Source: Raillietiella orientalis (lineage: Eukaryota). Taken from it: a stretch of 64,000 bases of DNA. Position numbers and translations under genes: made by a program. Within the stretch, counting starts at the first letter, position 1, and each line of letters begins with the position of its first letter. Shown here in pieces: positions 4,146 to 59,845 of the stretch. The notes below the pieces were generated by a model that worked only from the letters and a program-made list of their open reading frames with translations, was not told the origin of the DNA and made no database searches. The stretch is from the NCBI GenBank assembly GCA_036172245.1, contig JAYWIR010000033.1, positions 434,001 through 498,000 on the forward strand. Direction: 5' to 3'.

Positions 4146-4279
4146 GTTCCCCAAGTCCCACAAGGGGTGGGGTAAGTTTATTTTTCTATAAAAATACAAA
4201 ATTTACATTCGCACTCTCATTCACTCAATACAAACATTTTGCACTTGAGGGTCCTTGGGTTGCACTAGAGTTCTGCTTT

Positions 4280-7200
4280 TCAGGAGGGAATTCCAGCTGG
4301 TTGGTCCCGGGCGTCGTCCTGGATCCTCTTCAGGATGAATCGGTACGTCCAGGCGTGGATCTTCCCGCAGTTCCTGATGCCGATTTCCCTCTTCAAGAGC
4401 CCTTGTAGGATCTCCATCGGTGGTGCGGCTCTTCTGGCTTTCCTCATTTTCCACCACCGCACAAGTATGGCGGTGATGAAGAGGGCTATGGTCGTCCTCA
4501 CCATGGGATTGTAACAGGGAACATTACCATCCCCATAAAATATCCCGGCGAGGATCTCCATAACGGACTTGTTGGTAAGTCCTATGATCCTTTTCAGGAT
4601 CAGGCAGTCATGCAGCAGTGTGGGACACGTCAAGACGTGAAGTCTCGTGTCGTCGTCTCCACATGCTGCGCAGTCTCGGTCTTCCCGTCTTCCTGTGAAG
4701 TGCTGCAATCGGGACCCACTCTGGATTCCTCCGTGATAAAACATCAGGAAGTCATCCTGGGTGCCCGGCGGAAGGTCACTCCTCCAGAGCGTCGTGCCGA
4801 TCGCTAACAGGTTGAACCGCTCACTCCCGTAGCGTTCGGTGGCTTCCTGGAGGGCACTGGTGTCACGGTCGTTTTCTTGGATAAGCCTTCGGAGGTTTGT
4901 TCTGGTTACCCTCGACCATGCGAAGTCGTTGTGGTTGAACCACACTTCGCGGGTCCTGAGGGTAAACCTTCCTAACATCATCTCTGTATACCGAAGTATA
5001 CGTGTTTGATGTAGGTAGCCTCCTCGCCTCCACTCCTGGATTTGCAGTAGGGTAACTCTGGACCGCTGGTAGATCCAGCTTCTCGTGTCCGGCGGGACAG
5101 GAAGCACTCAAGGGATCACCAGGATGGACTCGTCCTGCCAGAGTTCCCTGCTTCGCGGCACGATCTTGATCTGGTGCTTCCGCACCAGCCGTTGCTCCCT
5201 CCTCCAGGTCGGGTCGATTGTTATCCATTCCCCTACTTTGCCTAGCAACGCAGTCATCAGGCCTTCCGAGTTGTTAAGCAACAACGCGTAGGCCCTGTGC
5301 GCCGCATACGGCCAGTCATCCCAGTAAGTGGCCATGTCCAGGATGTGTCGCGTATCCATGATTTCCATGGAATGTGCAAGCGACTTCATCCCGGAACCGC
5401 CTAATTCCCTGGGACGACACAGGGGTTTCAGTCTTACTCTTGGACGATAGTGGCCCCAGAGTGTTTTTCTTTGCAGCTTGTCGAACTCCCTAGTAGTGTC
5501 CTTGTTCATCCTCGCGGAGGCCGCCCCGAAGAGCACTCTCGGAAGGAGTACTCCGTTCCATATTGTTGCCTTTCGCTTCATCCCAAGGTCCGTTCGGGTG
5601 TACTTGGCTGCTTCCTTCGCCGTTTTCCCCAGGATTTCTTTCCACAGCAGCTTCGACGCAGAGCCGTCGCCGATGTAGACTCCCAGGTACTTGGCCGTGT
5701 CCACCGTACGGAATCCACTACCCGTTAGAGTGGAGAGATCCAGGATTCCGACGGGCAAAAGCTGGCTCTCTGGGAATTGATTTTTAAGCCCAAGCCCTGT
5801 TCCATCTGGTCCACCACATCCAGAAACGCACGCTGATTTTTCTCTCCCTTGATGAAGAAGAGTAGATCATCGGCGTATGCCAGATGGGTAAGACGCTGGC
5901 TATCGATGGTAATCCCGCTTATTCGTCCGCTCTTCTCGATAAAGGACGACAACGCCTTCATATAGATAACGAACAGCATCGGACTTAGCGAGTCCCCCTG
6001 TCGGACTCCTCGTTCCATCCTGATTGCTGCCGTCTCCTGGCCGTTGATCTTGATTTGGCAGTACTGGTTCTGGAGTACCGCACTCACGAAGTTGCTGAAG
6101 TGTTCCGGAAGCCCTAGCTTCTCCAGAACCTTCAGCAGCATCCCATGGTCGATGGAGTCGAAGGCCTTCTCCATGTCAGTGGACACCAGCACCAGGTTCT
6201 CGCCGACGTATCGACTTAGTCCAACAGTGGCCTGGGCACACTTGACATTGTCCGACATGTGTCGTCCTGGGACTGCACATGTCTGGACCGGAGAGATCAG
6301 CCTCGACATGACCTTGCCTAAGCGGTTGGACCAGATCTTCGCCAACCACTTGGCAACGGAGTTTAGAATCGAGATTGGCCTCCATTGGGCGATCTGGGTA
6401 GAGTCGCCTCCTTTCGGCAGCAATCTCATCGGACTCTCGTAGAAGGACTGAGGTAGTCTGCCTTCTTCCCGGATGCAGAGTGTCAACTGGTGGAACAAGC
6501 GCAGGTAGGCGTGCAGGTACCGCTGATAGTGCGTGATGGGTACACTGTCAGGGCCCGCTGCCACGTCCTTGCGAAGTTGCCCAAACGCAGTCTTCACCTC
6601 TTCTTCGGAGAACTCCTCCTCCAGTCTGTTCCGCTGGAGGTCGTCGGTCCTCTTCTCGAGATAGCTCAAGAAGGCCTGTTGACTAGAGCGACACAGCTGT
6701 TGTCGCCTGAAGTGTTTCGTGTAATGCCTGTGAAAGGCATCCACGATGTCCTCAGACGACTGTCGCTTTTGGCCGTAGTACTGGATGCAGAAGATATCGG
6801 TTGCCAGATTTCTCTTCTCCAGCACGCCGACTTCCCCTTTTAGGTTATTGAGGACGTACCGACTCTCGTACTGATCGAAGTACTTTGAGAGGGAGCGATC
6901 TTGGATGTTCAGCTCCCGGTACGCCTCTTGCCTCAAGCACCTATCCCCGAACTGCATGTTCGCAAACAGGTGTATCCTGTGTTTCAGGCTGTCCCAGTCG
7001 GCGACTCTTCGTATTCTTGTTGCCCTCAGAATCGCCTCCAGGACAGCCTGATGTCCGGGATGGGTTTCGAACCAGGCGGGCATGCTGATGAGCGCCGCCC
7101 TGGTGCCTTGCCTCCGTCGAGGATTCTCCGTTCTTAAGGAAAACCGCACCAGGGGGTGATCGGACACCGTAGTCATAGTGTCGCGAAACCCCTGGATGCG

Positions 7201-7797
7201 GTTCCCAAGTTCGGTGCTGTGCAGGACGTGATCGATTGGCTTCTGGCTTGCTGTTCGCCAGACCAGTCCGAACTCCTCGGATAGCCGTCGATACGCCGTA
7301 TTTCCTCTGGCGTCTTCCGAATGAATGATCTCATCCAAGATGTTGAGATCGCCAGCAACTATCACGACGTCCTTAGATGCGACCTTTTGCCGGAGTGTTG
7401 CATGCAGAGCCTCCGCACAACGATGTTTTAGCCTGTGCGGCCCGTACACGTTCAACAGGATAAGGTGAACAGTCGCGGACCAGGCCAGTCGCACGCCGAT
7501 GATTCGTCCGGGTTGGGGACAGAACACTTCCAGAATAGTGGGGGCTAAGTGGTTCTTTATTAGCACCGCCACACCCTTCGTGTTCCGTTCTCCTTCGTTG
7601 ACGAACATCTGCCCGTTGAATCGTCGTTCCATTCGCTGGCTTATCTCCAGACCCATCCTGTGGGTCTCCTGCAGGCACACGATGTCTTGTTGTGCGATGG
7701 TCCGCACAATCCTTCTTCTTTTTCCCTGGTCGACCACACCGTTTACGTTCCAGGAGGCGATGTTTATCCTCCTGGCGGTCGATAGGGAAGAGGCCAT
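4280..7797 (-). pseudogene. A2 ORF2 (APE-RT-zinc finger), nearly intact
   Basis: SWNVNG, LQETH, GDLN, SDH, HLAYADD, KYLGVYI, CAAC..RLHVLTC across three ORF pieces. Confidence 0.95.
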
Positions 7798-7810
7798 AAA
7801 AGGGGGAGAC

Positions 7811-9598
7811 CTATTTCTTGGCCTTCCTGAGTCTCTTTTGTCTGAGAGAACGTGCTCTTCCAGACAATGAAGAAGCAGCGGGCTTCTCGCTGCCGGCGTC
7901 ACTCTCCGTACCTGTGAGGTCGATAATTTCCGCCTCCTCCGTAGAGTGTTCCGCCTGCGCGATCAATTTTCGAGATAGCGCCTCTATTTCGACCTTGGCG
8001 GAGAAGTTCGTTTTCACCTCGAGAAGCTGTTCCTCTAACTTCTCGCGTTCAGCGACCTCCACCACCTGGTTGATGTTCTCTTGTGCAGTGCAGATCTTCT
8101 GCAAGATTTTCTCTTGCTGAGGACCGCTCTGCACCTCCATGATCTCCTCCGCCAGTGTTGCCAACTCCTCCGTAGTCTGCAGAGCTTCCTGCGACACTTT
8201 AGTGGCTTCCTGTCTCTCTTCCTTCGCGGCTTCCTGCGCTACCTCCATCTTCTCGCCTTCCTGCTCTGGTGCTTCCAGGATTTGAAGAGATCCTTGCTCC
8301 TTGACGAGCATATTCCTCTTTCCCTTCTTTCCCACTTCTATGAAGCCGTCCGCCGACACCGGGACGGCTTTTTTCACTTTTTTCTGCCTTCCTGCCTTCT
8401 GAGGCTGCTCGGCCTCCTTGATGTTTCTCTCTCTCACGGGAGAGAGACCTCGAATCCTTCTGCAGTTTTCAAACTCCGGACAGCTACATTTCGCATGTCC
8501 GTGTTTCTTGCAGAAGGAGCACACCTCCGGCTGCGGGCAGTTTCGGACTTGATGTCCTACTTTGCCGCAGCGGAAACAACGACACGTTGGGCAAGAGCCG
8601 ACCCTGTGACCGAACTGCTTGCACCCGGTGCAGAATACCGGTTGTTGCCGGTAACGCACATTCACTCCCTGGGATTGTTCGTCAATAACGGCCAATCCAG
8701 GGATCACCGCTCCCTCCCTCAACTTCATCTTGGCGATCATGTCGCCAGAAAATATGTTTCCAGAGAAGTTCTGGAAATCAAGGTCCAGAACTTTCCCAAA
8801 CTGCTCCAAGTAATTCCACACCGCTATTTGCGGTGTGAGGATGGAGATGCCGTTTAAAAAGACGGTTGTGTATGGCATCTCGCCAATACCACAAACCATC
8901 CGTCCTTGTATATTGATCCCCTTCTGGATCAATCGCTCTCTAATGTTTTCACAGTCTGTAAAGACTGTGAACCCGTTGTTCGATGGAATGATCGCCTGAA
9001 TGCGATCAAAGTCTATGTCCGTCTTGTCGAGGGACAAAATGACCTCCCTGATGTTATTAAATTTTATTAGCCCCGTCTTGAAGATAATGAGCTTCACGTT
9101 GGGGCCTATTTCCACTATTGGTCGGTCCACTTTTAGTACTTTTCCGCTAAGCGGCTTACCGAATTTCCTAGTTGGGTGGACACTCGCCTGTCCAGCCGCC
9201 ACCGACGCATAAGAAAAGGGCTGCGACGCCGCAGCCGAACAAGATGACGTCGCTCCCTGCACCGCGTGGACGCCCGCGGGTCCCGCCTGGGACGCCACCG
9301 CCGCGGGCGCAAACCTCGACGTTGCCGCGGTTACCGCCGCGGGGGGCACCATCGGCATCGCCGCCGCAGGCGCGACCTTCCCCGCCGCGGGCACGATCCT
9401 CGGCGTCGCCGCCGCGGGCGCGCCCTCCGCCGTCGTCGCCGCGGGCACGACCCTTGGCATCGCCGCCGCCGGCGCAGCAAAGCCCGCCGCGGGCGCGATC
9501 CTCGGCATGCCTGCCACCGCCTCGCCGTTGCCGCACGTTACCTCCGTGGCTTCCATGGGGGACGACGGTCTCTCCACTCCTCTTCTAGGTGCCTGCAT
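7811..9598 (-). CDS. A2 ORF1p, 595 aa: Ala/Pro repeat, putative RRM-like region, three CCHC knuckles, Glu/Lys-rich C-terminus
   Basis: Open from MQAPRRG to KAKK*; same length as A3 ORF1. Confidence 0.9.
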   Translation of the reverse strand: MQAPRRGVERPSSPMEATEVTCGNGEAVAGMPRIAPAAGFAAPAAAMPRVVPAATTAEGAPAAATPRIVPAAGKVAPAAAMPMVPPAAVTAATSRFAPAAVASQAGPAGVHAVQGATSSCSAAASQPFSYASVAAGQASVHPTRKFGKPLSGKVLKVDRPIVEIGPNVKLIIFKTGLIKFNNIREVILSLDKTDIDFDRIQAIIPSNNGFTVFTDCENIRERLIQKGINIQGRMVCGIGEMPYTTVFLNGISILTPQIAVWNYLEQFGKVLDLDFQNFSGNIFSGDMIAKMKLREGAVIPGLAVIDEQSQGVNVRYRQQPVFCTGCKQFGHRVGSCPTCRCFRCGKVGHQVRNCPQPEVCSFCKKHGHAKCSCPEFENCRRIRGLSPVRERNIKEAEQPQKAGRQKKVKKAVPVSADGFIEVGKKGKRNMLVKEQGSLQILEAPEQEGEKMEVAQEAAKEERQEATKVSQEALQTTEELATLAEEIMEVQSGPQQEKILQKICTAQENINQVVEVAEREKLEEQLLEVKTNFSAKVEIEALSRKLIAQAEHSTEEAEIIDLTGTESDAGSEKPAASSLSGRARSLRQKRLRKAKK

Positions 9599-9768
9599 CC
9601 TGGCAGCTGGTCTTGCTGCACGGGACCACTGCAGGTCTTTTGCCGCGATCTCCTCGCCGCTTCTTTTTTTTTTGTTTCTTCTGGAAAACTTCCCCTCTCC
9701 GGGCACACACGAGCACAATGAACTGATTAAGTTGTCAAGCGCACAATACTTCGAGCCGCGGAGCAAGT

Positions 9769-9784
9769 TCACCGACTCGGCAGG
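9769..9784 (+). repeat. Family A TSD between A2 and A3
   Basis: TCACCGACTCGGCAGG. Confidence 0.9.
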
Positions 9785-9872
9785 TTTCCCCAAGTCCCAC
9801 AAGGGGTGGGGTAATTTTATTTTTCTATAAAAATACAAAATTTACATTCGCACTCTCATTCACTCAATACAA

Positions 9873-12800
9873 TTATTTTGCACTTGGGGGTCCTTGGGTT
9901 GCACTAGAGTTCTGCTTTTCAGGGGGAATTCCAGCTGGATGGTCCCGGGCGTCGTCCTGGATCCTCTTCAGGATGAATCGGTACGTCCAGGCGTGGATCT
10001 TCCCGCAGTTCCTGATGCCGATTTCCCTCTTCAAGAGCCCTTGTAGGATCTCCATCGGTGGTGCGGCTCTTCTGGCTTTCCTCATTTTCCACCACCGCAC
10101 AAGTATGGCGGTGATGAAGAGGGCTATGGTCGTCCTCACCATGGGATTGTAACAGGGAACATTACCATCCCCATGAAACATCCCGGCGAGGATCTCCATA
10201 ACGGACTTGTTGGTAAGTCCTATGATCCTTTTCAGGATCAGCCAGTCATGCAGGAGTGTGGGACACGTCAAGACGTGAAGTCTCGTGTCGTCGTCTCCAC
10301 ATGCTGCGCAGTCTCGGTCTTCCCGTCTTCCTGTAAAGTGCTGCAATCGGGACCCACTCTGGATTCCTCCGTGATAAAACATCAGGAGGTCATCCTGGGT
10401 GCCCGGCGGAAGGTCACTCCTCCAGAGCGTCGTGCCGATCGCTAACAAATTGAACTGTTCACTCCCGTAGCGTTCGGTGGCTTCCTGGAGGGCACTGGTG
10501 TCACGGTCGTTTTGTTGGATAAGCCTTTGGAGGTGTGTTCTGGTTACCCTCGACCATGCGAAGTCGTTGTGGTTGAACCACACTTCGCGGGTCCTGTGGG
10601 TAAACCTTCCTAACATCATCTCTGTATACCGAAGTATACGTGTTTGATGTAGGTAGCCTCCTCGCCTCCACTCCTGGATTTGCAGTAGGGTAACTCTGGA
10701 CCGCTGGTAGATCCAGTTTCTCGTGTCCGGCGGGACAGGAAGCAACCAAGGGATCACCAGGATGGACTCGTCCTGCCAGAGTTCCCTGCTTCGCGGCACG
10801 ATCTTGATTTGGTGCTTCCGCACCAGCCGTTGCTTCCTCGTCCAGGTGGGGTCGATTTTGTTCCATTTGCCTGCTCGGCCTAGCAGCGCAGTCATCAGGC
10901 CTTTCGAGTTGTTAAGCAACAACGCGTAGGCCCTGTGCGCCGCATACGGCCAGTCATCCCAGTAAGTGGCAATGTCCAGGATGTGTCGCGTATCCATGAT
11001 TTCCATGGAATGTGCAAGCGACTTCATCCCGGAACCGCCTTCTTCCCTGGGACGACACAGGGGTTTCAGTCTTACTCTTGGGCGATAGTGGCCCCAGAGT
11101 GTTTTTCTTTGCAGCTTGTCGAACTCCCTAGTAGTGTCCTTGTTCATCCTCGCGAAGGCCGCCCCGAAGAGCACTTTCGGAAGGAGTACTCCGTTCCATA
11201 TGTTGGCCTTTCGCTTCATCCCAAGGTCCGTTCGGGTGTACTTGGCTGCTTCCTTCGCCGTTTTCCCCAGGATTTCTTTCCACAGCAGCTTCGACGCAGA
11301 GCCGTCGCCGATGTAGACTCCCAGGTACTTGGCCGTGTCCACCGTACGGAATCCACTACCCGTTAGAGTGGAGAGATCCAGGATTCCGACGGGCAAAAGC
11401 TGGCTCTTCTGGGAATTGATTTTTAAGCCCAAGCCCTGTTCCATCTGGTCCACCACATCCAGAAACGCACGCTGATTTTTCTCTCCCTTGATGAAGAAGA
11501 GTAGATCATCGGCGTATGCCAGATGGGTAAGACGCTGGCTATCAATGGTAATCCCGCTTAGTCGTTCGCTCTTCTCGATAAAGGACGACAACGCCTCCAT
11601 ATAGATGACGAACAGCATCGGACTTAGCGAGTCGCCCTGTCGGACTCCTCGTTCCATCCTGATTGCTGCCGTGTCCTGGCCGTTGATCTTGATCCGGCAG
11701 TACTGGTTCTGGAGTACCGCCCTCACGAAGTTGCTGAAGTGTTCCGGAAGCCCTAGCTTCTCCAGAACCTTCAGCAGCATCCCATGGTCGATGGAGTCGA
11801 AGGCCTTCTCCATGTCAGTGAACACCAGCACCAGGTTCTCGCCGACGTATCGACTGAGTCCAACAGTGGCCTGGGCACACTTGACATTGTCCGACATGTA
11901 ACGTCAAGGGACTGCACACGTTTGGACCGGAGAGATCAGCCTCGACATGACCTTGCCTGAGCGGTTGGACCAGATCTTCGCCAACCACTTGGCATCCGAG
12001 TTCAGGATCGAGAATGGCCTTTATTGCGCGACCTGCGTGAGGTCGCCTCCTTTTGGCAACAATCTCATCCGACTCTCGTAGAAGGACTGTGGAAGTCTTC
12101 CTTCTTCACGGATGCAGAGGGTCAACTGGTGGAACAAACGCAGGTAGGCATGCAAGTACCGCTGATAGTGAGTGATGGGTACGTTGTCAGGGCCCGCTGC
12201 CACGTCCTTGCGTAGTTGACCAGACGCAGTCTTCACCTCGTCTTCGGAGAATTCCTCCTCCAGTCTGTTCCGCTGGAGATCGTCGGTCCTCTTCTCGAGG
12301 TAGCTCAGAAAGGCCTGTTGACTAGAGCGACACAGCTGTTGCCGCCTGAAGTGTTTCGTGTAATGCCTGTGAAAGGCATCCACGATGTCCTCAGACGACT
12401 GTCGCTTTTGGCCGTCGTACTGGATGCAGAAGATATCTGTTGCCAGATTTCTCTTCTCCAGCACGCCGACTTCCCCTTTTATGTTATTGAGGACGTACCG
12501 ACTCTCGTACTGATCGGAGTACTTTGAGAGGGAGCGATCTTGGATGTTCAGCTCCCGGTACGCCTCTTGCCTCAAGCGCCTATCCCCGAACTGCATGTTC
12601 GCAAACAGGTGTATCCTGTGTTTCAGGCTGTCCCAGTCGGCGACTCTTCCGATTGTTGTTGCCCTCAGAATCGCCTCCAGGACAGCCTGATGTCCGGGAT
12701 GGGTTTCGAACCAGGCGGGCATGCTGATGAGCGCCGCCCTGGTGCCTTGCCTTCGCCGAGGATTCTCCGTTCTTAAGGAAAACCGCACCAGGGGGTGATC

Positions 12801-13435
12801 GGACACCGTAGTCATAGTGTCGCGAAACCCCTGAATGCGGTTCCCAAGTTCGGTGCTGTGCAGGACGTGATCGATTGGCTTGTGGCTTGCTGTTCGCCAG
12901 ACCAGTCCGAACTCCTCGGATAGCCGTCGATACGCCGTCCTTCCTCTGGCGTCTTCCGAATGAATGATCTCATCCAAGATGTTGAGATCGCCAGCAACTA
13001 TCACGACGTCCTTAGGGGCGACCTTTGCCGGAGTGTTGCATGCAGCGCCTCCGCACAACGATGTTTTAGCCTGTGCGGCCCGTACACGTTCACCAGGATA
13101 AGGTGAACAGTCGCGGACCAGGCCAGTCGCACGCCGATGATTCGTCCGGGTTGGGGACAGAACACTTCCAGAATAGTGGGGGCTAAGTTGTTCTTTATTA
13201 GCACCGCCACACCCTTCGTGTTCCGTTCTCCTTCGTTGACGAACATCTGCCCGGTGAATCGCCGTTCTATTCGCTGGCTTATCTCGAGACCCATCCTGTG
13301 GGTCTCCTGCAGGCACACGATGTCTTGTTGTGCGATGGTCCGCACAATCCTTCTTCTTTTTCCCTGGTCGACCACACCGTTTACGTTCCAGGAGGCGATG
13401 TTTATCCTCCTGGCGGTCGATGGGGAAGAGGCCAT
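9873..13435 (-). pseudogene. A3 ORF2 (APE-RT-zinc finger, about 1190 codons), two lesions
   Basis: Pieces 13001-13435, 12021-13020 and 9873-12020; YADD present. Confidence 0.95.
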
Positions 13436-13448
13436 AAAAGGGGAAGAC

Positions 13449-15236
13449 CTATTTTTTGGCCTTCCTGAGCTTCTTCTGTCTGAGAGAGCGTGCTCTTCCA
13501 GACAATGAAGAAGCAGCGGGCTTCTCGCTGCCGGCGTCACTCTCCGTACCTGTGAGGTCGGTTACTTCCGCCTCCTCCGTAGAGTGTTCCGCCTGCGCGA
13601 TCAATTTTCGAGATAGCGCCTCTATCTCGACCTTGGCGCAGAAGTTCGCCTTCACGTCGAGAAGCTGTTCCTCTAACTTCTCGCGTTCAGCGACCTTCAC
13701 CACCTGGTTGATGTTGTCTTGTGCAGTGCAGATCTTCTGCAAGATTTTCTCTTGCTGAGGACCGCTCTGCACCTCCATGATCTCCTCCGCCAGTGTTGCC
13801 AACTCCTCCGTAGTCTGCAGAGCCTCCTGCGACACTTTAGTGGCTTCCTGTCTCTCTTCCTTCGCGCCTTCCTGCGCTACCTCCATCTTCTCGCCTTCCT
13901 GCTCTGCTGCTTCCAGGATTTGAGGAGTTCCTTGCTCCTTGACGAGCATCCTCCTCTTTCCCTTCTTTCCCACTTCTATGAAGCCGTCCGCCGACACCGG
14001 GACAGCTTCTTTCACTTTTTTCTGCCTTCCTGCCTTCTGAGGCTGTTCGGCCTCCTTGATGTTTCTCTCTCTTACGGGAGAGAGACCTCGAATCCTTCTG
14101 CAGTTTTCAAACTCCGGACAGCTCCATTTCGCATGTCCGTGTTTCTTGCAGAAGGAGCACACCTCCGGATGCGGGCAGTTTCGGACTTGATGTCCTACTT
14201 TGCCGCAGCGGAAACAACGACACGTTGGGCAAGAGCCGGCCCTGTGACCGAACTGCTTGCACCCGGTGCAGAATACCGGTTGTTGCCGGTAACACACATT
14301 CACTCCCTGGGATTGTTCGTCAATAACGGCCAATCCAGGGATCACCGCTCCCTCCCTCAACTTCATCTTGGCGATCATGTCGCCAGAAAATATGTTTCCA
14401 GAGAAGTTCTGGAAATCAAGGTCCAGAACTTCCCCAAACTGCTCCAAGTAATTCCACACCGCTAGTTGCGGTGTGAGGATGGAGATGCCGTTTAAAAAGA
14501 CGGTTGTGTATGGCATCTCGCCAATACCACAAACCATACGTCCTTGTATATTGATCCCCTTCTGGATCAATCGCTCTCTAATGTTTTCACAGTCTGTAAA
14601 GACTGTGAACCCGTTGTTTGATGGAATGATCGCCTGAATGCGATCAAAGTCTATGTCCGTCTTGTCGAGGGACAAATAGACCTCCCTGATGTTATTAAAT
14701 TTTATTAGCCTTGTCTTGAAGATAATGGGCTTCACGTTGGGGGCTATTTCCACTATTGGTCGGTCCACTTTTAGTACTTTTCCGCTAAGCGGCTTACCGA
14801 ATTTCCTAGGTGGGTGGACACTCGCCTGTCCAGCCGCCACCGACGCAAAAGAAAAGGGCTGCGACGCCGCAGCCGAACAAGATGGCGTCGCTCCCTGCAC
14901 CGCGTGGACGCCCGCGGGTCCCGCCTGGGACGCCACCGCCGCGGGCGCAAACCTCGACGTTGCCGCCGTTACCGCCGCGGGCGGCACCCTCGGCATCGCC
15001 GCCGCAGGCGCGACCTTCCCCGCTGCGGGCACGATCCTCGGCGTCGCCGCCGCGAGCACGACCTCCGCCGTCGTCGCCGCGGGCACGACCCTTGGCATCG
15101 CCGCCGCCGGCGCAGCAAAGCCCGCCGCGGGCGCGATCCTCGGCATGCCTGCCACCGCCTCGCCGTTGCCGCACGTTACCTCCATGGCTTCCATGGGGGA
15201 CGACGGTCTCTCTACTCCTCTTCTAGGTGCCTGCAT
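13449..15236 (-). CDS. A3 ORF1p, 595 aa, gag-like with three CCHC knuckles
   Basis: Intact ORF with CTGCKQFGHRAGSC, CFRCGKVGHQVRNC and CSFCKKHGHAKWSC. Confidence 0.92.
   Translation of the reverse strand: MQAPRRGVERPSSPMEAMEVTCGNGEAVAGMPRIAPAAGFAAPAAAMPRVVPAATTAEVVLAAATPRIVPAAGKVAPAAAMPRVPPAAVTAATSRFAPAAVASQAGPAGVHAVQGATPSCSAAASQPFSFASVAAGQASVHPPRKFGKPLSGKVLKVDRPIVEIAPNVKPIIFKTRLIKFNNIREVYLSLDKTDIDFDRIQAIIPSNNGFTVFTDCENIRERLIQKGINIQGRMVCGIGEMPYTTVFLNGISILTPQLAVWNYLEQFGEVLDLDFQNFSGNIFSGDMIAKMKLREGAVIPGLAVIDEQSQGVNVCYRQQPVFCTGCKQFGHRAGSCPTCRCFRCGKVGHQVRNCPHPEVCSFCKKHGHAKWSCPEFENCRRIRGLSPVRERNIKEAEQPQKAGRQKKVKEAVPVSADGFIEVGKKGKRRMLVKEQGTPQILEAAEQEGEKMEVAQEGAKEERQEATKVSQEALQTTEELATLAEEIMEVQSGPQQEKILQKICTAQDNINQVVKVAEREKLEEQLLDVKANFCAKVEIEALSRKLIAQAEHSTEEAEVTDLTGTESDAGSEKPAASSLSGRARSLRQKKLRKAKK
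14935..15150 (-). repeat. Coding minisatellite in A ORF1, unit like PAAA(M/T)PR(V/I)VPAA
   Basis: GC-rich imperfect repeats, also at about 3660-3875, 9297-9510 and, with fewer units, 52535-52690. Confidence 0.8.
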
Positions 15237-15403
15237 CCTGGCAGCTGGTCTTGCTGCACGGGACCACTGCAGGTCTTCCGCCGCGATCTCCTCGGAGCTT
15301 CTTTTCTAGTTTCGTTTGGAAAACTTCGCCTCTCCGGGCACACACGAGCACAATGAACTGATTAAGTTGTCAAGCGCACAATACTTCGAGCCGCGGAGCA
15401 AGT

Positions 15404-15419
15404 TCACCGACTCGGCAGG
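15404..15419 (+). repeat. Family A TSD at the A3/C1 junction
   Basis: TCACCGACTCGGCAGG reads on into C ORF1 (SPTRQERSDLPTVKK). Confidence 0.9.
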
Positions 15420-19651: not shown

Positions 19652-20004
19652 GAACTTCGTAATCCGGTGACCCCTGCGACCTCTCGCCCACCCATACCTT
19701 GTCCCCGTTCGCTCGGTAAAATTTCCGGTGCCCATGCTTTTATCCCCGTGTCTTCCAGAGCGATCCCAAAGACCCTTATCCCGTCCTCCTTATTCATTGT
19801 TTTTATTTTATTTTGGTTTCTTTGTGTTCTTCGCCATCCCACACCGTTCACAAAACTGTTACTCTGGCCTGCGTGCCAGCAATATTCTCTTCATTCTTGT
19901 TCAGTCGTCGGTTGGGAGTTTGGTTCATAACTGGTTTATTTTGTATAATTGCTTTTTTTCGTTATGTTATATGGAATAAACGCCCCGGCGTGACCGGTTG
20001 AGAA

Positions 20005-21892: not shown

Positions 21893-21908
21893 CGCTCCGG
21901 AATCTCCA
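21893..21908 (+). repeat. Family B TSD CGCTCCGGAATCTCCA between B1 and B2
   Basis: Repeated at 27438-27453, where it reads into D ORF2 (TLRNLQDWDLFK). The left limit is uncertain by a few nt. Confidence 0.8.
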
Positions 21909-21938
21909 TTGAAACCCGGGTGCGCCGGGACGTTTATT
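21909..21938 (-). terminator. 3'-terminal signal of B2: AATAAA, 3 nt, CCCGG-cgcac-CCGGG hairpin, tttcaa; no poly(A)
   Basis: The same architecture occurs at the intact 3' ends of the other families. Confidence 0.7.
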
Positions 21939-22121
21939 CTAACAAATAAACTTATACAATCTGTGACTGGACCAATAGTCCAGCCACGCCCTGGAAAGAT
22001 ATAGCCTGCCGGGCTACCGGTGCGCAGACCGGCGCGGTCGACCTCGGCAGCAGAGGGGAGGAGGAACGAAACAAAAAGAAAACAAAAAATAAACAAAAAT
22101 CAGGGAGGGAGCGGGAAGGGA

Positions 22122-41416: not shown

Positions 41417-41736
41417 TTTGTCAACCGATAAACCGAGATATTTATTATTTTGAATTGTTACAAAAATTAAATAATAAAGTCTTTAAAAAATGTTTTCTGT
41501 GGGAGAACACTGAGTTCTCCAGTGCACTCAAGTTCGGTTTTTATTGTGAAAGGTAAACGCCACCTTGTCGCCGTCTCCAAAGAAATCTTCGTCTAGTGGA
41601 TGGCGTCCCTGCATCTTAGGCCTCTTCTTCTTGCGTGCCACCTTTGCACAATACCGCGCAAGCAGCAGAAGACTGGTAGAGACGCAGCTGGGTGCAGGCC
41701 GTCACTCAGAAAGCGGAGACGGTAAATGTCCTTAGG
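41417..41736 (-). mobile_element. Element H2, short 3'-end fragment (ORF2 C-terminus plus AT-rich 3' UTR)
   Basis: FLSDGLHPAASLPVFCCLRGIVQRW resembles the ORF2 C-termini of B and G. Ends AATAAAtatctcggtttatcggttgacaaa. Confidence 0.7.
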
Positions 41737-45986: not shown

Positions 45987-47344
45987 TACAATGCAGACGT
46001 GGTTTTGCGTCTATACGCGCTAACGATCGGGCAACTTCCTGCCTGCGTTTTCGCTCCCACTTCTGTGTTCCTGTGCAATCCTCTAAGTAGCATAGTGCAA
46101 CATGGCCAGAACACAGAATAGTGTAGAAGAGGAAGCCACTGGATGCACTTCAGCTGCACTTGAAGTGCCCGCAAACTCCGTAATGGTTTCCTCGCCCCCG
46201 GTGAGGAGTTACGCCGCCGTTACCTCTTAAAGGCCAGGACCCTGCGATGCGGAGTTTCAGGCATATGTGTCATTAGGATACATGCCTACACTCCGTTATA
46301 AGGTCAGTGGGCCCCTTAACGGGAGAATCGGTCGTGAGCTCAAAGATAAGCTCGTCCGGATCGGCGTTTGCGAGGTGGAACACCTTGCCATAATGCCTGC
46401 TGGCAGGATGGAATATACGAAGATTCGGTGCAAGGACGCAGCACTTGTGCAGTGCCTTCTCCGTACGCCGTTGACCATCAACGGCAAGGAAGTCCTACCT
46501 ACCGCGATGGACGACTCTTTGTCGTTCAATTGTGCGACATCGAACCGGAAATCTCCGATCGCGATGTGGTTAGCGTGCTGGCGAAGTTTGCCACCGTGCA
46601 CGCCCTGTGGGTGAGGCCGAACCCTGTGTAGGATTTCTCCTTTGTCCACATCGGAGAAACCTCCGCGCGGATCACTCTCATGAACAGGCGTGTTGTGCCT
46701 TAGCAGCTGCTGGTGAACGGCATGGTCGTTCACCTGTGGTTCATAGGTCAGACTCACGCGTGCGAGCAGTGCGGCAAGGATGGGCACCAAATTAAAGAGT
46801 GCCCCTCTCCAAGATGCCGCTATTGCAAAGATTACGGGCACGAGATCAAAAAGGGCCCGGTACTTACAAAAAAAGGAGCCGCAGCGGAAATACGTCGGGT
46901 TCAAGAGACCACTGCACGAAAAGCCGCAGCGGCAAATAAAAAAAGATCGACCGTAAAAACTCGGAAGGAACAACGAGCGATCCGAGGATCAAAAGAAAGC
47001 TTCCCGCCCGCAACGCCCCGAAAAGGAAAAGTCACGGCTGGAAAGCCAATTAAAAAGGGGCGCGAGGGTTTGACGCGTGCTGTGCCCTCCCTCGCTGCCG
47101 AACTCGCAGGCACCTCTCCGAGCCACGTACTATGAAATCTTTGTAACAGCCTTGAGGGGAAAGTAGCAAAACAGGAAGATCGCTACAGTACGAAGAATTC
47201 TTGCCCCGTTCCGTTGTCCCTTGAGTTCCGGACAGCCCCGCTGCAGCGCAGGCCCCTTTGCAAAGGCTACGAAAGCCGTAAAAAGCAGCGTCGCGACGAG
47301 CAAAGGCACGCTGGATGCAGTCGCCCCATCGCCGACTCGGCAGG
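45987..47344 (+). mobile_element. Family C copy C2, 5' UTR plus ORF1 up to the A target
   Basis: GYMPTLRYKV, CEQCGKDGHQIKEC, CRYCKDYGHEIKK. Ends in TCGCCGACTCGGCAGG. Confidence 0.9.
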
Positions 47345-50300: not shown

Positions 50301-52893
50301 GCCCTGGTGCCTTGCCTCCACCGAGGATTCGGCGTTCTTACGGAAAACCGCACCAACGGGTGATCAGACAGAGTAGTCAACGTGTCTCGAAAACCCTGAA
50401 TGCGATTCCCTAGTTCGGTGCTGTGCAGGACGTGATCGATCGGCTTGTGACTGGCTGTTCGCCACACCAGTCCGAGCTCGTCGGACAGCCGCCGATACTC
50501 CGTCCTTCCTCTGGCGTCTTGGGAATGACTGATCTCATCCAATATGTTGAGATAGCCAGCAACAATCACGTCGTCCTTGCGGCGACCTTTTCACGAAGTG
50601 CTGCATGCAGCGTCTCCGCCCAACGATGTTTCAGCCTGTGCGGCCCGTACACGTTTACCAGCTTAAGGTAAACAGTAGCGGACCAGCCCAATCGCACGCC
50701 GATGATTCGTCCGTGTTGGGGACAGAACACTTCCAGAATAGTTGAGGCCAAGTGGTTCTTGATTAGGACCCCCACACTCTGCGTGTTCCTTTTTTCCTCG
50801 CTGACGAACATGTGCCTGTTGAATCGCAGTTCCATTTACTGACTAATCTCGCGACCCATCTTGTGGGTCTCCTGCTGGCACACTATGTCTTGTTGTGCAA
50901 TGGTCCGCACAATCCTTTTTCTTTTTCCCTGGCCGAGCACACCCTTTACATTTCAGGAGGCGATGTTCAGCCTCCTGGCGGTCGATAGGGAAGAGGCCAT
51001 AAAAGGGGGAGACCTATTTCTTGGCCTTCCTGAGTCTCTTTTGTCTGAGAGAACGTGCTCTTCCAGACAATGAAGAAGCAGCTGGCTTCTCGCTGCTGGC
51101 GGCACTCTCAGTTCCTGTGAGGTCGGTTATTTCCGCTTCCTCCGTCAAGTGTTCGGCCCGCGCGAACAATTTTCGAGATAGCGCCACTATCTCGACCTTG
51201 GCGCAGAAGTTGGTTTTTAAGTCGAGAAGCTGTTCCTCTAGCTTCCCGCGCTTGGTGACTTCCACAAACTGGTTGACCTTCTCCTGTGCATTGCAGAACT
51301 TCTGGAAGATTTTCTCTTGCTGGGAATCGCTGTGCACCTTTAAGACTTCATTAGCCAGTTATGCCAACTTCTGTGTAGATTGCAGGGCCTCTTGCGACAC
51401 CGTAGTGGCTTCGGCTATTTCTTCTCCCGCGCCTTCCGGCGCTAGCTCCATCTTCTCGCCTTCTTGCTCTTCACCTTCCAGGATAAGAAAGGTTTCTTGC
51501 TCCTTGACGTGCATGCTCCTTTTTTTTTTCTTCCCTACCTGTATGAATCCGTCTTTCTATACCGGGAGGGCTTCTTTCAGCTTCTTCGGTCTTCCTGCAT
51601 TATGAGGCTGTTTCGCATCCTTAAGGTTTCTCTCTCTCCCGGGAGAGAGACCTCGAATCCTTCTGCAGTCTGCAAACTCTGGACAGCTTCATTTGGCATG
51701 TCCGTGTTTCTTGCAGAAGGAGCACACCTCCGGCTGCGGGCAGTTTAGGACTTGATGTACTACTCTGCCGCAGTTGAAACAACCACACGTTGGGCAAGCG
51801 CTGGTCTGGTGGCCGAACTGCTTGTATCCGGTGCAGAATACCGGTTGTTCCCGGTGATCCACGTTCACTCCCTAGGATTGTTCGTCGAGAACGGCTAATC
51901 CAGGGATCACAGCTCCCTCTTTCAACTTCATTTTGGCGATTATGTCGCTGGAAAATTATATTTTTAGAGAACTTCTGGAATTCAAGGGCCAGAACTTCCC
52001 CGTACTGTTCCAAAAAGTTCCACACCGTCAATTGCGGTATCAGGGTGGAGTTGCCGTTCAGAAAGACGGTTGTGAATGGCATTTCGCCAATACCACGAAC
52101 CATCCTCCCTTGTATATTGATCCCCTTCTGGATCAATCGCTTTCTAATATTTTCACAGTCTGTGAAGAATGTGAACCCGTTGTTTGCTGGTATGATCGCC
52201 TGTATGGGATCAAAATTGATGTCCGTTTTGACCGAGGGACAGATACACCTCCCTGATATTATTGAACTTGATCAGTTCAGTCTTGAAAATGATAAGCTTC
52301 ACATTCGGCCCTAACTCCACGATCGGCCGATCCACCTTTTGGACTTTTCCGCATAGCGACTTCCCCAATTCTCTTGGCGGGTGGACACTCGCTTTTCCAG
52401 CCGCCACCGACGCATAGGAAAAGGGCTGCGCCGCCGCAGTCGAACAAAATGGCGTCTCGCCCTGCACCGCGTAAACGCCCGCGGGTCCAGCCTGGGACGA
52501 CGACGCCGTGAGCGCAACCGTCCACGTCGCCACCGTTGCTGCAGCGGGCATCACCCTCGGCATCGCCGCCTCAGGCACGACCTTCCCGGCCGCGGGCACG
52601 ATCCTCGGCGTCGCCGCCACGGGCACGACCCTTGGCATCGCCGCCGCCGGCGCAGCAATGCCCGCCGCGGGCGCGATCCTCGGCATGCCTACCACCGCCT
52701 CGCCGTTGCCCCACGTTATTTCCATGGCTTCCATGGAGGACGACGGTCTTTCCACTCGTCCTCCAGGTGCCTGCATCCTGGCAGCTGGTCTTGCTGCACG
52801 GGACGACAGCAGGTCTTCCGCCGTGATCTTCTCGGCGCTTCTTTTGTAGTTTCGTCTGGAAAACTTCCCTTGTCCGGGCTCACACGATCACAA
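47345..52893 (-). mobile_element. Family A copy A4, degraded, about 50 nt shorter at the 5' end, TSD on both sides
   Basis: Colinear with A2/A3: ORF1 52776->51014, ORF2 from 51000. TSDs at 47329-47344 and 52894-52909. Confidence 0.93.
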
Positions 52894-55840
52894 TCACCGA
52901 CTAGGCAGGAGACGAGGAATCTCTCGACTGTCAAGAAGGTGACTTCGTTGCCGTTTGTTGAAGGCGTAGCGAAAGCAACGCCCTCAGAGAGAGCAGCGAA
53001 AATCCCGGAGGTTTCCGCAACTATTGTCGCTCAAGCCTCCGGAAATAGCGAAGTCGAATGGAAGGATGTGGAAAGGAGGAAAGAAAAATCTCCCAAAAAA
53101 GCTTCGCAACATCCACCCTTGAGCTCTTCCAAAGAAAAAAGCAGTCGCGGGAATACGAAAACACGCGCGGCTTGTGCCTTTTCTCAGGAAAGCCAGCGCC
53201 TTTAACGCGTGCAAGTCCGCTTCTGTGACCGCCCAGAAGACCATTCCGGTGCAATCGGACGGATGCAAGCGCACTTCGATCGTGCGAGCATCACACTACG
53301 CAAAGGAGTCCCATAGCGCCGCTGAACGAGCGCCCGATCACATTAGTGAATTCGGACGTCAAGTTGTTTTCGAAACTTTTGTTGGCGCGGACGGGTAGGA
53401 TCGCGGAATCCTTGGTAAGTCCTGAGCAGACGTACGCTGTTCGTGGGAGGTCCATGGACGCGAATCTCTTGTTCATCCGCACATGGCTGCAATTGCAGCA
53501 TCGTCTGGCGGTAAAACGTCGTGCGGAAGCGACGCCTTCGATCTTCCATCGATTGAGGCGCGGGACGCAAATGGAGACAACGGAAGCCTTGGCGGTTGCA
53601 GTCGATTTGCACAAAGCTTTCGATTGCGTGAACCAAAACTTTCTTCTTGAGCTTTTGGAACGTCTGGGTCTTCCGGCATCCCTGTTGGTGTACTTGCGCT
53701 CCTGCTGTCGCCACGCGATTACATCCATTGTTTTCAGTGGCTGTCGCGTGTATAGCGTGCCGGTACGACGAGGAATTAGGCAGGGTGCTAGCTAAAGCCC
53801 GCTGCTCTTCAGCATCTATATTGAATTGGTACTGGAGGCTTACAGGCTGACGCTAGCTAATCTGCCGAGCTCCTGTCCAGGTACGCCGGCCGTGGCAGAC
53901 TATGCCGACGACCTGCTTCTCCTGTTGCCCATGTCTATCCCGGCGACATCGCTTAAAGACTTCTTTGAGTTGATTCGTCGCGGTGCGGGCGTGAGCGTTA
54001 ACAGGAGTAAGTGTATGGTTGTTCCGGTGGGTGCGACGTGGAAGGGGCAGTCCGACTGGATCGACTTTGAGATTCATACGGGCAGGTACCTCAGGAACTT
54101 TGGCGTGCCGTTGGGCGACTTCTGCATCTCAGAAGCGTAGTCGGGCTGCCTTGGAAAGGCAGAGCGTGCACTTGGCCCGTTTTCAGGAGGCGAGTGAGTC
54201 TTGTGGGAACGTGCCTCCTTGTGGAACACCTTCGTTGCCCCCTCCTCCGCCTCCTGGTTTTTGTTTGTGCACTCCCCCAGGAAGTCAAAGTTTGGGCGCA
54301 GCGCCTTCTACGCAAAGCATTGTGGGGCGCTGCAAGATCCCGTGTTAGACTTAGAGACTTAGTGGCGGCGCCTCAGGATGCAGGCTGGGGCATCCTAGAC
54401 TTGAAAAGCATCGAGCTGCATATGCAGTTTCTAATGCTGCGGCTCTGTGCCAAGATTTGGTGTACGCCGTGGTGCTCACCCGCACGACTCATTCTAAGGC
54501 GCTGCACGGGAAGCGAGGGACTGCTTTCGTTGCTACCTTACTTTCGGCACACAAGAATAGGGTTTGGCTTCCCGCCGAGGCAGCTGTTCTCACTGCTGGA
54601 AGTCCAACGCTGGATATTTTGCCGCCCCATGAACATTAATGCGTGGCGGCAGTAATCTTCTTCATCGTGGGCAGCTTCCGAAGGAACGCCTTCGAAAGAT
54701 CTTCGATGCCTGCGACTTCTTTTCAGTCATCAAATGGACGGAGTCATGAAGGACAAGAAGATGTCGGATCATCTGGCCGCCACACCACTCGCCGCAGCGC
54801 TGTCTGCTTGCAGGGCAAGCAACGACGGTTGCCTATCGGCGGAATGGGAGTTCTTCTGCAAAATAGAGGGAGTCAGTAAGCTTCTCGGCAGCTGGACGAC
54901 AAAGTAGCTGGTGCAAGCAGCCACTCCTCGGAATCAAGCGAAGGGCCTGCTTTGATGCAGCGAACATTTAAGTGTGCATCTTGAGGAGATAGAAATTCCC
55001 CCCGTTTATTTGGACAGCTTCGTGTTTCTTCTACAGTGGAAACAAGATGTGCACAATGTACAAAATTTTTGTACATTGTGCATCACACTGTAATAAACAG
55101 CGAAGTATCGTTTCCGAGGGAGCTGCTTTGCCAAACTGTTTAAGGTGCCTAGAGATCGAGTCTTTTCCGCACCTTTTGCTGGACTGCGGTGACCTCCGGG
55201 AACTTTCGCGAAGGCTCACTTCGGCCATTATGCTACAAGGAGGCACTGCCATTGATGTGCTGCGGCGCTTCTTCAGCAGAAATGGACGTTTGGTTGGCGC
55301 GATTGCCGAAACCATATGTTGCGTTCGCTCCATCGTGAAGGCTATCTACGCCCTGGAGTTGTCAGCGCAGCGAAGGTGGGCTAGTCTGCTTGCAGCTTAA
55401 TTCATGGAGAAGGCTTAAAGGTGGTCTCATCTTCGTTACAAGGTGAAAGAGGACATCACCGGCCTACATCGCCGGTTTTCATACCTTTGAGAACGGCGTA
55501 ATCTGGTGACCCCTGCGACCTCTCGCCCACCTATACTAAGTCTCCGTTCGCTCGGTAAAATTTCCGGTGCCCATGCCTTTATCCCCGTGTCTTCCAGAGC
55601 GATCCCAAAGACCCTTATCCCGTCCTCCTTATTCATGTTTTCATTTTATTTTGGTTTCTTTGTGTTCCCCGCCCTCCCCACACCGTCCGCAAAACTGTTA
55701 CTCTTGCCTGCGTGCCAGCAATATTCTCTTTATTCTTGTTCGGTCGTCCATTGGAAGTTTGGTTCCCAACTGATTTATTTTACATGATTTTTTTTGTTGA
55801 TGTAATATGCAATAAACGCCCCGTCTTGACCACGTAAGAA
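52894..55840 (+). mobile_element. C2 3' portion, with an internal deletion that removes the APE
   Basis: Matches C1 15404-15870, then C1 17497-20004; YADD near 53900. Confidence 0.92.
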
Positions 55841-57756: not shown

Positions 57757-59845
57757 TAAGAAAGGCGGTCGACTGCGTATATCAGGATATCCTCCTGGAG
57801 GTCCCGGAACGCCTCGGGCTTCCGGTGCACCTCGTGGCGTATATTCGCGCTTGTTGGCGCCACGCACTAACTTTCATCCCTTATAGCGGCTGCCACGTGT
57901 ACAGCGTGCCGCTGCGGCGGGTCATCAGCCAGGGCGACAGTTTAAGCCCATTGCCCTTCAGCATCTTCTTTGAGTTGGTGCTAAGTGCGTACAGGCTGAC
58001 GCTGGTCAACTTGCCGAGCCTTTGTCCAGGAACGCCTTTTGTGGCGGCCTATGCTGACGACCTGCTTCTTCTTTTACCCATGAGCACCCCGGCGTTCAGT
58101 CTCGAGGATTTCTTCGAGCTGATTCGCCGGGGAGCGTACGTGAGCGTAAGCAGGAGCAAGAGAGTGGTTGTACCTATTGGTGCTGCGTTTAAGGGGCAGT
58201 GCGACTGGATCCGCCTGTGGATGTCGACCGCTTCGTCCACTCAAAATCTGGGCGATCCGCTGGGGTGCATCAGCCCAGTGGAAGTGCGGTCGGACTGCCT
58301 TCGGAAGGCTACGAGTGCGCTGAGCCCGTTCCAGCATGGCAGGTTCCTCCTGTCGAAGCGGGTCGCGATATGGAACACTTTCGTTGCCCTTCTTTTGCGC
58401 CCTCTGTTTTTGGTTAGCCCGCCAACCTACTCGGTGAAGATTCAGGCGCACAGCCTGATTAGGAACGCTTTTTGGGATCCTGCGAGGTCCAGGACCCGCC
58501 TGAAAGCCTTGGCAGCTCCACGACGGGATGCTGGCTTAGGCATTCTGACGCTGGAGAGAATCGAGCTGCAGGTGCATCTTCGAATGTTGGCCCTTTGCGC
58601 CAACGTTTGGTCCACTCCTTTCTGCGCTCCTGCGCGCCTGCTCCTGCGGCGCTGCACCGGCAGCGAAGGACTTCTGTCGCTGCGTCCGCACACGGAGCAC
58701 CCCACGACAAGATTCGGTTTCCCTTTGAAACCACTCTACCGGATCCTGGCACCCCAGGAAAGGATCTCCTGCCGCCTCAGGAAATTTGAAGCCTGGCGGC
58801 AGGAACCGTTGCATGGCTGGGCAAAGCACCAGGATGTTTCCCTCCTGGAACCCTGTTGCGTTCACCTCTCCCCGTAATGCAGGGTGGATGATGTCTGAAG
58901 CAGCCAGGAGAAGTGGACCCCCCTGGCCGTCACCCCTCTCGCCGACGCACTGTAAGCCCTCAGGGTAAGAGATGACAGCTTCGAACCGGCGAGATGAGAG
59001 GTCGCCTGCACCATTGGAGGAACAACACGACCTATTGGCGGCTGGAGGACTTGCGAGCTGGCAGACGCCGCCACGCCTATTCACATCTCGAAGGGACTCC
59101 TCCGGTAGAGCGAACACTTGAGTGTGTCCGCCGAAGAACTTGTGATCCCTCCCTCTTGTTTGACACTTCTGCCTTCCCCCTTTCGTGAAAGCAGGACTTC
59201 ATCATGGTGGTGCATTGGGGTTTTGACTCCAACCAGCAGAAGAACCGTGTTTCCGGGGGAGTTGTCTACTTAAACTGTAAGCGGTGCGGGGAAATGGGAA
59301 CGCTTCCGCACCTGCTTATGGACTGCAATGCCCTTCAAGGACTTTGGCGGAGGCTGGCCTCAGCTCTCCTGCACCAGGGGGACACCGCGAGGGACTTGAT
59401 GCGCCGCTTCTTCACGCCAGGCGGCCTGTCTATGAGTGCTGTAATTGCAACCGTGTGTTGCACCCGTGCCAACGACAAGGCCCACCGAGAGTTGGAGAAG
59501 CTGACCATTCATCCTCAGACCAACTGATTAGCCAGCACAAGCATGTCGTCGGCTGCCGAGTGGGCCCATCTGCCACAGGACGTAAGGAGAGAGATCGTCG
59601 GCATCTATCGCCGGTTTTGAATGGAAGGAACGGACTCGCCAAAGACCCCTCTCCTCTGCCCACCATATTTTTATTTTACATTTTTATAGTAGTGTATTTG
59701 TGGTTCCCTTTCTCCCGTAGCGGACTTTCGCCATAACGACCTGCGTGTCGGGGATCCCACCCCCTTTGTATCTTGTTTTCCCCATTGTGAGGTACCCTGT
59801 TCTCGGATAGTTCTTAACAAACGCCTTGGAGCACTCAAGTTACAA
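57757..59845 (+). mobile_element. Element F 3' portion (RT from KAFD, zinc finger, 3' UTR)
   Basis: ORF 57825-58877 with SQGDSLSP and AYADD; CKRC..LPHLLMDC (59204-59527). Confidence 0.9.

Follow-up and report, generated by a model that had tools for sequence, protein, structure and literature searches.

In this study we have investigated the 3' ends of L1-like long interspersed nuclear elements (LINEs) that are nested in a stretch of 64,000 nucleotides from Raillietiella orientalis (assembly GCA_036172245.1, contig JAYWIR010000033.1, positions 434,001 to 498,000, forward strand), hereafter termed the window, and of their relatives in the 210 Mb genome. The window holds two deep lineages of elements with two open reading frames (ORFs), A (copies A1-A5) and B (the copies that an earlier note on the same DNA had called B, C, D and F), both of which end without poly(A). 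Judged from sequence, this structured, tail-less end probably serves recognition by the reverse transcriptase (RT). The anatomy of the B elements suggests a more specific reading, to which we give about even credence, namely that the last ~140 nucleotides of their RNAs, consisting of the hairpins SL1 and SL2, the hexamer AAUAAA, the terminal hairpin SL3 and six final bases, would form a modular handle of the stringent type for the ORF2 protein (ORF2p) of the same element, with the bound hairpin fixing the start of the complementary DNA (cDNA).

The absence of a tail, which the earlier note had proposed, is borne out by local A runs, by loci chosen without bias and by genome-wide counts, and the eight stem motifs listed there were all found in place, as were the complete ends in the form quoted. 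The pattern AATAAA-N3-CCCGG-N5/6-CCGGGT describes 2,168 exact B ends in the genome, compared to none for a reversed control pattern, and the position of the tail is occupied by seven or more A's in only one of them (C46:276586-276620). In the 14 nucleotides past the stem, the longest A run measures at most five, A's of the target included, in all 236 scorable ends out of 238 unique ones. Similarly, no poly(A) tail was found at any of 150 loci that were chosen by their upstream 3' untranslated region (UTR), one of which ends at a contig edge just past AA. These loci comprise 30 each for B2, C1, F, A4 and B4, the best 30 of 40 scored, taken from 202-1,450 candidates each; their queries end before AATAAA, which avoids selection on stem or tail, and the ranking of the best 40 is biased toward young copies. 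A search for A elements whose query contained the stem was left out of the tail counts as biased. The end is thus shared in that both lineages are tail-less, whereas lineage A differs in its stem, its 5-nucleotide spacer and its three to four terminal A's.

The junction between element and target is equally well defined. When clustered, 168 B ends formed 10 multi-copy families, and 22 further ends remained single. In the window, B2, C1, B4, F, B3 and D belong to fam0, fam1, fam2, fam3, fam7 and fam8, respectively. Bases 5-6 past the stem, which are outside the search pattern, read AA in 159 of these 168 ends, and the end point six bases past the stem is alike in families with 5- and 6-nucleotide loops. 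The ends are therefore described by the stem followed by NNNNAA; the terminal short tandem repeat that characterizes the L2 clade is not present. Candidate target duplications of at least 11 bp, mostly 13-16 bp long, were detected at 25 of the 238 ends. Among the 21 from lineage B, 15 start right after AA, four one base earlier, one three bases earlier and one a base later; except for one tandem case they span 11-21 bp, and those of 11 bp could be due to chance. Since empty and 5' sites (CCCAGTCC followed by TGGAG, TCCGTTCG followed by ATCTC, GCTCCGCT followed by CCTGC) carry no upstream A's, the terminal A's belong to the element. Together with the identity of the first target bases (T in B2, T in B4 and C in A), these sites also imply that the primers of several families are unable to pair with poly(A). 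Hence neither of the features of relaxed, mammalian-type L1 elements, a 3' poly(A) and a T-rich primer site, is found here. The ends in the window and their target duplications are as follows.

4146-4182, minus strand: 3' end of A2, with AATAAA at 4177-4182, either an inner stem-loop CCCAC-CCCTT-GTGGG at 4157-4171 or an outer stem CCCCA/TGGGG at 4149-4172, and terminal AAC
9785-9821, minus strand: 3' end of A3, an A2-type module with terminal AAA
47345-47381, minus strand: 3' end of A4, a single decayed copy (CTTCA/TGAAG) and no family variant
61246-61282, minus strand: 3' end of A5, inner stem kept, 3' arm of the outer stem altered
4133-4145, minus strand, also 9772-9784, 15407-15419 and 47332-47344: A-family target duplication of 13 bp, CCTGCCGAGTCGG, separating the tandem copies A3-A2-A1
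21909-21938, minus strand: terminal module of B2, with AATAAA, SL3 at 21915-21929 and the end TTTCAA
21893-21908, minus strand, partner at 27438-27453: target duplication of B2, 16 bp, TGGAGATTCCGGAGCG
19975-20004, plus strand: terminal module of C1, ending in TGAGAA, followed by the target ATCTC
55811-55840, plus strand: terminal module of C2 with decayed stem
30423-30453, plus strand: terminal module of D, stem with one extra G-C pair, end TGGCAA
33198-33227, minus strand: terminal module of B3, from AATGAA to TGGCAT
42337-42367, minus strand: terminal module of B4 with the 6-nucleotide loop CGAAAT; family consensus end TGAAAA, followed by TCGAA
59816-59845, plus strand: terminal module of F, a heavily decayed copy of the CCCCGG-CGCAC-CCGGG family
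41418-41446, minus strand: another decayed end of like kind, possibly the copy H2 of the earlier note (assigned by eye, uncertain)

The hexamer AATAAA is kept in nine of the ten B family consensuses and in lineage A, and the end follows at a distance of 24-25 nucleotides in B and of about 31 nucleotides in A. The usual range of cleavage in animals lies near these distances. It is thus conceivable that the module acts only as a 3'-processing signal of the host, an animal as indicated by a teneurin exon on another contig. AAUAAA and hairpin would then determine where the RNA is cleaved, and the enzyme would copy from its end irrespective of structure. We regard this explanation as improbable, since it accounts neither for the near-total absence of a copied tail (1 in 2,168) nor for the covariation found in SL1, 100-135 nucleotides further upstream.

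This upstream hairpin consists of a stem closing a CUGCGN loop (CUAUGC in fam5), located about 100-135 nucleotides before the B end. Its closing pair is T-A in three families, C-G in three, G-C in three and A-T in one, thus covering all four Watson-Crick types, a diversity for which any tree must contain three or more double changes, with pairs 2 and 4 adding one each. In the consensus sequences, 49 of 50 cells are paired (p 9e-5 for the closing pair by permutation) and in real copies 48 of 50, with changes on both sides found in three pairs and nine cells. The covariation score of 0.516 compares to 0.176 +/- 0.045 in shuffled alignments, none of 500 shuffles reaching it, and to at most 0.151 in slid controls. 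The latter comparison favours the structure, which had been derived from the very sequences under test. In fam4, which contains two CTGCG motifs, use of the first would lower the consensus count to 46 of 50 paired cells, whereas a fixed rule selecting the last motif gives the 49 quoted. As judged from these alignments, the covariation in SL1 is real, and it is a feature of stringent-type LINEs. The covariation that the earlier note had expected in the terminal stem is thus absent there and present in a hairpin which that note did not name. No SL1 loop was seen in lineage A, and a search of window positions 19700-22200 against Rfam returned a single match at chance level.

A further hairpin, SL2, whose sequence is specific to each family, is predicted in the stretch that separates SL1 from the hexamer; this segment has z below -2 in five of the ten families. 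The hexamer itself may be engaged by an upstream arm of the GUUUAUU type. In a test covering 20 of the 32 clusters, including all 10 multi-copy families, this pairing exceeds shuffled sequences in four of the ten, is borderline in one and does not do so in five, and occlusion of AAUAAA as a universal feature was accordingly rejected. The upstream features in the window are listed below.

22014-22035, minus strand: SL1 of B2, loop CTGCGC, closing pair T-A
21963-21987, minus strand: SL2 of B2, with family-specific stem
21932-21951, minus strand: predicted helix of B2 pairing GTTTATT with AATAAAC and occluding the hexamer, strong in 4/10 families only
19861-19882, plus strand: SL1 of C1, loop CTGCGT, closing pair C-G
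19910-19932, plus strand: SL2 of C1
55700-55721, plus strand: SL1 of C2
30336-30357, plus strand: SL1 of D, closing pair G-C; SL2 at 30387-30403
33303-33324, minus strand: SL1 of B3, closing pair G-C; SL2 at 33256-33272
42448-42469, minus strand: SL1 of B4, loop CTGCGA, closing pair T-A; SL2 at 42396-42420
59733-59754, plus strand: SL1 of F, closing pair C-G, second pair A-T

Two side observations concern these elements. The base after GCG is equal in the loops of SL1 and SL3 in six of nine multi-copy families (p 0.08), a result that we do not rely on, and in 12 of 17 clusters (p 0.03, with relatedness ignored), which hints at two similar binding sites. Moreover, the TTTATT upstream of the hexamer (fam0, 1, 2, 4 and 5, thus five of ten multi-copy families; 21932-21951, minus strand, in B2) is an AATAAA in antisense, which could terminate transcripts of a host LINE when these run into an antisense insert.

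In the terminal hairpin SL3, the five pairs never vary across the ten B families and covariation can for this reason not be detected. Conversely, its loops of 5-6 nucleotides differ in sequence and length between families, with an extra G-C pair at the loop in fam8 and fam9. Such an invariant stem with varied loops corresponds to the pattern of common stem and specific loop read by the ORF2p of ZfL2 elements (PMC4176376), and it thus supports the proposed handle. When folded on their own, the last 30 nucleotides give a terminal hairpin in all ten families, some with shifted register, and lineage A folds either the outer stem or the inner hairpin CCCAC-CCCTT-GTGGG, of five pairs and a 5-nucleotide loop, depending on context. 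The ends therefore share with stringent LINEs a conserved 3'-terminal sequence that is able to form a stem-loop, without compensatory changes in this terminal stem, as it is invariant in 10/10 families and as swaps in individual copies match neutral decay.

The latter is evident from the substitutions in A4 compared to A2, in F and in D, which the earlier note had interpreted as compensatory and which instead reflect post-insertion decay, with C>T and G>A changes in single copies. Of 30 A4-type loci, the window copy alone has the A4 form CTTCA/TGAAG, which appears once in 95 true A-type ends, identified by eye among 100 listed of 197 genome-wide matches; in these 100, the sole recurrent variant is a T>C change in the loop (18 copies). 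The nearest relatives of A4 have the A2-type stem, and C>T or G>A changes in one arm are frequent. Within the outer A stem, changes are confined to the 5' arm in 22 cells and to the 3' arm in 14, and they affect both arms in three, compared to 2.83 expected from independence, and two of these three are found in the A4 copy of the window. The proposed swap in F (CCTTGG/TCAAG) is likewise confined to one decayed copy within the CCCCGG-CGCAC-CCGGG family. Double changes in F number three, with 0.36 expected, both paired ones residing in the window copy alone, and a copy sharing its flank carries different, unpaired changes. The G.U-pairing arm of D deviates from its family consensus CCCCGGG (three copies). 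In each of the five sets, stems change about as fast as G/C positions further upstream (0.030 vs 0.024 in B2, for example), and C>T or G>A account for 78 of 111 changes, with overlapping A stems counted twice. Regarding the stems that had been described as degenerate, C2 is indeed decayed, whereas A5 has lost only the outer stem and its inner CCCAC/GTGGG is intact. A genome-wide probe for an SL3 family with compensated pair 4 retrieved only 29 scattered double variants (by eye, 13 A-T, one T-A, two T.G and 13 unpaired), as double CpG decay would give.

Several of these results weigh against a handle that is recognized by its fold. SL3 shows zero covariation between families, a compensated pair-4 family was not found, with only 16 of the 29 double variants pairing (by eye), its stability alone is no better than that of shuffled sequences (z -0.32), and in a 145-nucleotide fold its pair probability falls below 0.1 in six of ten families, often losing to long-range pairings. 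The fixed register of six bases past the stem could be plain inheritance. Regarding SL1, the shuffle test treats families as unrelated, and the exact loop motif is found in 20 of 32 clusters (10/10 multi-copy families and 10/22 single copies). The invariance of all five SL3 pairs, the weak folding and the presence of CCGG also in both SL1 arms of several families would suit a primary-sequence motif, in which two CCGG boxes are read on RNA or DNA and the hairpin is a by-product of their self-complementarity. This is difficult to reconcile with a spacer that varies between five and six nucleotides, with the extra G-C pair in fam8 and fam9, and with the stem of lineage A, whose likeness to SL3 is one of form, with five pairs and a 5-nucleotide loop but a different sequence (CCCAC/GTGGG), and we thus also consider it improbable. 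Both the processing-signal and the sequence-motif explanations fit less well than docking of the enzyme or annealing of the RNA to its target, the latter of which is discussed below. Of the structure for RT recognition that the earlier note had proposed, what stands is a precise, tail-less end with fixed register that is conserved across ORF2 C-termini sharing 30-78% identity between the ten multi-copy B families, whereas the evidence from swaps fails and the terminal stem lacks covariation.

Based on this anatomy, the elements would work like stringent LINEs. In the proposed docking mechanism, AAUAAA would direct cleavage near the end, and ORF2p would dock on SL3 by its shared stem and family-specific loop, with SL1 as a putative second conserved contact. 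Once docked, the protein would place the beginning of the cDNA six bases past the stem. This could happen by cutting or trimming of the RNA to the protein's footprint or by priming at the tail boundary, and poly(A) would in either case escape copying. The family-specific target would mainly be chosen by the endonuclease, and pairing with a T-tract would not be required. Lineage A would follow the same logic with another hairpin and without SL1. Priming at the tail boundary, as suggested in the earlier note, is possible; annealing of a read-through transcript accounts for the junctions about as well.

The latter relates to the targets of the different families. Directly after the junction, a family-specific 5-mer is found also at dispersed sites (ATCTC at 29 of 30 in fam1, TCGAA at 23 of 30 in fam2), whereas in the target duplications the positions upstream of the nick show no apparent preference. 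A preference for target sequence, as known from the Tx1 clade, is thus present. Families insert at fixed positions in the reading frames of other LINEs: fam0 in antisense behind the part that encodes the endonuclease (21 of 31, with another eight in tandem), fam2 in antisense in the RT, fam1 and fam3 in antisense in the start of the endonuclease and lineage A in antisense in an ORF1. This orientation is not universal, as flanks read in sense for fam4 (7/7) and fam9 (3/3).

Such junctions could also arise if, as in R1Bm, the RNA extends past AA into the target duplication of its parent and anneals through these four to five or more bases to the target strand at the nick. Such pairing would then define the exact junction as well as the target motif of the family, with hairpins aiding recognition and the helix over AAUAAA perhaps dampening cleavage. 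The motif of four to five bases that is kept right after the junction at dispersed sites, with no preference upstream of the nick, agrees with this proposal, and so does the pairing of AAUAAA beyond shuffles in four of ten families, whereas occlusion is absent in five and borderline in one. The last four primer bases are described as having to pair in human L1 (PMC3649969), and downstream target sequence is said to be needed by R1Bm for accurate starts (PMC7265360). However, a preference of the endonuclease explains the target motif equally well. In one B2 copy at a GCGAG site, a variant also found at sites without an element end before them, the first two primer bases may mismatch, and in F, where 11 of 25 distinct sites differ from ACAG, these differences show no link to sub-lineage (p 0.66, at low power). 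These two weak tests lean against annealing, which we retain, tentatively, as the main alternative. A bolder proposal, which we consider unlikely, is the following: an animal L1-group radiation would have given up poly(A) priming entirely, with each family transcribing a few bases into its own duplication, partly hiding AAUAAA, and pairing them at the nick, while the hairpin scaffold holds the register and the motif of four to five bases inherited from the flank helps to direct each family to its fixed position within a sister LINE.

Regarding possible partner SINEs with the same 3' tail, a match to ORF2 is absent within 1,450 nucleotides upstream of the end in three of 32 clusters, one of which resembles a fam4 copy that has been truncated to a short remnant. 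The terminal modules of fam25 and fam14 without ORF2 match (L098 around 1980, minus strand, and C33 near 597166) are possible non-autonomous partners or interrupted copies.

The assignment of the elements rests on their ORFs, with a CCHC knuckle in ORF1 and an APE endonuclease and RT in ORF2. Both are illustrated in A2, which identifies the carriers of these ends as two-ORF APE-type LINEs.

5725-9841, minus strand: ORF1 of A2 with CCHC knuckle (7811-9841) and the 5' part of its ORF2 with APE endonuclease and RT (5725-7962)

In the ORF2 of A2, an N-terminal endonuclease (PF03372, E 5.6e-17) is followed by the RT (PF00078, E 7.2e-31), and tblastn finds the same order in B copies. When compared to entries of the PDB with phmmer, an A-lineage ORF2 has its best scores with LINE-1 ORF2p (E 5e-37) and with an entry that bears no other title than 'RNA-directed DNA polymerase', far ahead of R2 (E 2.5e-24 or weaker). 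Among the named hits are RT proteins of plants, mammals and other vertebrates with 25-33% identity, and no hit is called Tx1. A match to the domain zf-RVT (PF13966) in B ORF2, with an E of about 1e-4, falls short of the curated cut-off, and none is seen in A ORF2. By these sequence criteria, namely the order of APE and RT, an RT nearer to LINE-1 than to R2 and the presence of target duplications, the window elements are non-LTR (long terminal repeat) retrotransposons of the L1 group (L1/Tx1).

Within this group, structured ends have a precedent. Ohshima 2012 (PMC3472496) describes stringent L1-clade LINEs in the monocot lineage 1a (LINE1-1_ZM with ZmSINE2/3) and, in Chlamydomonas, L1-1_CR with a shared tail, and lists in its Table 1 L1 families without 3' repeat in 9 of 233 cases from flowering plants and 5 of 15 from green algae. 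From such plant and algal examples, it was suggested that L1-clade elements ancestrally recognized a structured 3' end and that recognition of poly(A) only came later. Our elements share with these L1s the L1-group ORFs, a conserved 3' hairpin and conserved loop letters on variable, compensated stems (here SL1), and they differ by their animal host, up to three hairpins, an invariant terminal stem and a base-exact end without poly(A), in which L1-1_CR does end. In the L2-clade elements UnaL2, ZfL2-1 and ZfL2-2, a 3' stem-loop also combines a common stem with a family-specific loop (PMC4176376). There, ORF2p was found to bind it, with stem and loop being read by a conserved and a variable region of the protein, respectively, whereas here the likeness is one of sequence. 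UnaL2 is of another clade and ends in TGTAA repeats (PMC3747384), compared to two A's without repeat in the window. R1Bm and SART1 are, like our elements, site-specific APE LINEs, in which 3' UTR structure and short target pairing determine where reverse transcription begins; in contrast, SART1 needs a long poly(A), and the R1 clade is described to hit ribosomal DNA or telomeres and not the reading frames of other LINEs (PMC7265360). In their target behaviour, on which the likeness rests, our elements resemble Tx1L, Tx1-Mar and Tx1-8_Crp, animal L1-group elements at fixed places in other transposons, except that the targets of the Tx1 elements are DNA or LTR transposons, small nuclear RNA genes and microsatellites and that their SINEU partners have poly(A) (PMC4494074). 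Mammalian LINE-1, finally, is the highest-scoring named relative of solved structure, with an APE-RT ORF2 and target duplications of similar length, but its priming uses a T-rich primer and takes place within poly(A) (PMC3649969, PMC5135761), neither of which is found in the window elements.

Our searches by title or start of abstract, with Repbase and most subscription journals outside their scope, found no paper on this terminal module, and a similar tail-less end may stand in the supplementary alignments of Ohshima. As the strategy is already known from stringent L1-clade ends (Ohshima 2012), the finding is moderately surprising; the present work adds the refutation of swaps at the level of copies, genome-wide counts and a covarying SL1.

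Other observations concern the surroundings of these ends. The nest of LINEs reaches far outside the window (C33:234001-648000), with ORF2 ends every few kb (54) in no less than the initial 264 kb that were examined and a CpG observed/expected ratio of 0.97, compared to 0.75-0.94 in five other stretches. At 4146-15419 (minus strand), three A copies are arranged head-to-tail in the order A3-A2-A1 with the 13-bp duplication between them. Tandem repeats of 27/48 bp at 3687-3872, 9352-9508, 14935-15146 and 52545-52684 encode an Ala/Pro-rich stretch of lineage A ORF1. An F copy of ~60 nucleotides with extreme 5' truncation is found in tandem directly behind another F end (L109 around 1736-1807, minus strand), and element E (40580-40900, plus strand) has hairpins in its 3' UTR and is cut off before any terminal module. 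B-lineage 5' ends (21880-21908, minus; 59846-59900, plus; 27438-27465, minus) carry the motif RGACGTG ~23 nucleotides past the start of the duplication, which we take to resemble a downstream promoter element and which would place the start site in target DNA. An initiator-like (Inr-like) CCAGTC in the B2 target is at a fitting distance from RGACGTG; other families fit poorly. The 5' end of lineage A carries TAATCAGTT, which is Inr-like as well.

Collectively, at least 10 diverged animal families combine one shared scaffold with family-specific loops and targets and with base-exact, tail-less junctions. They provide a ready panel for studying how synthesis by an L1-type enzyme begins in the absence of poly(A) or T-tract, and they may be of interest to builders of precise site-specific retrotransposon tools.

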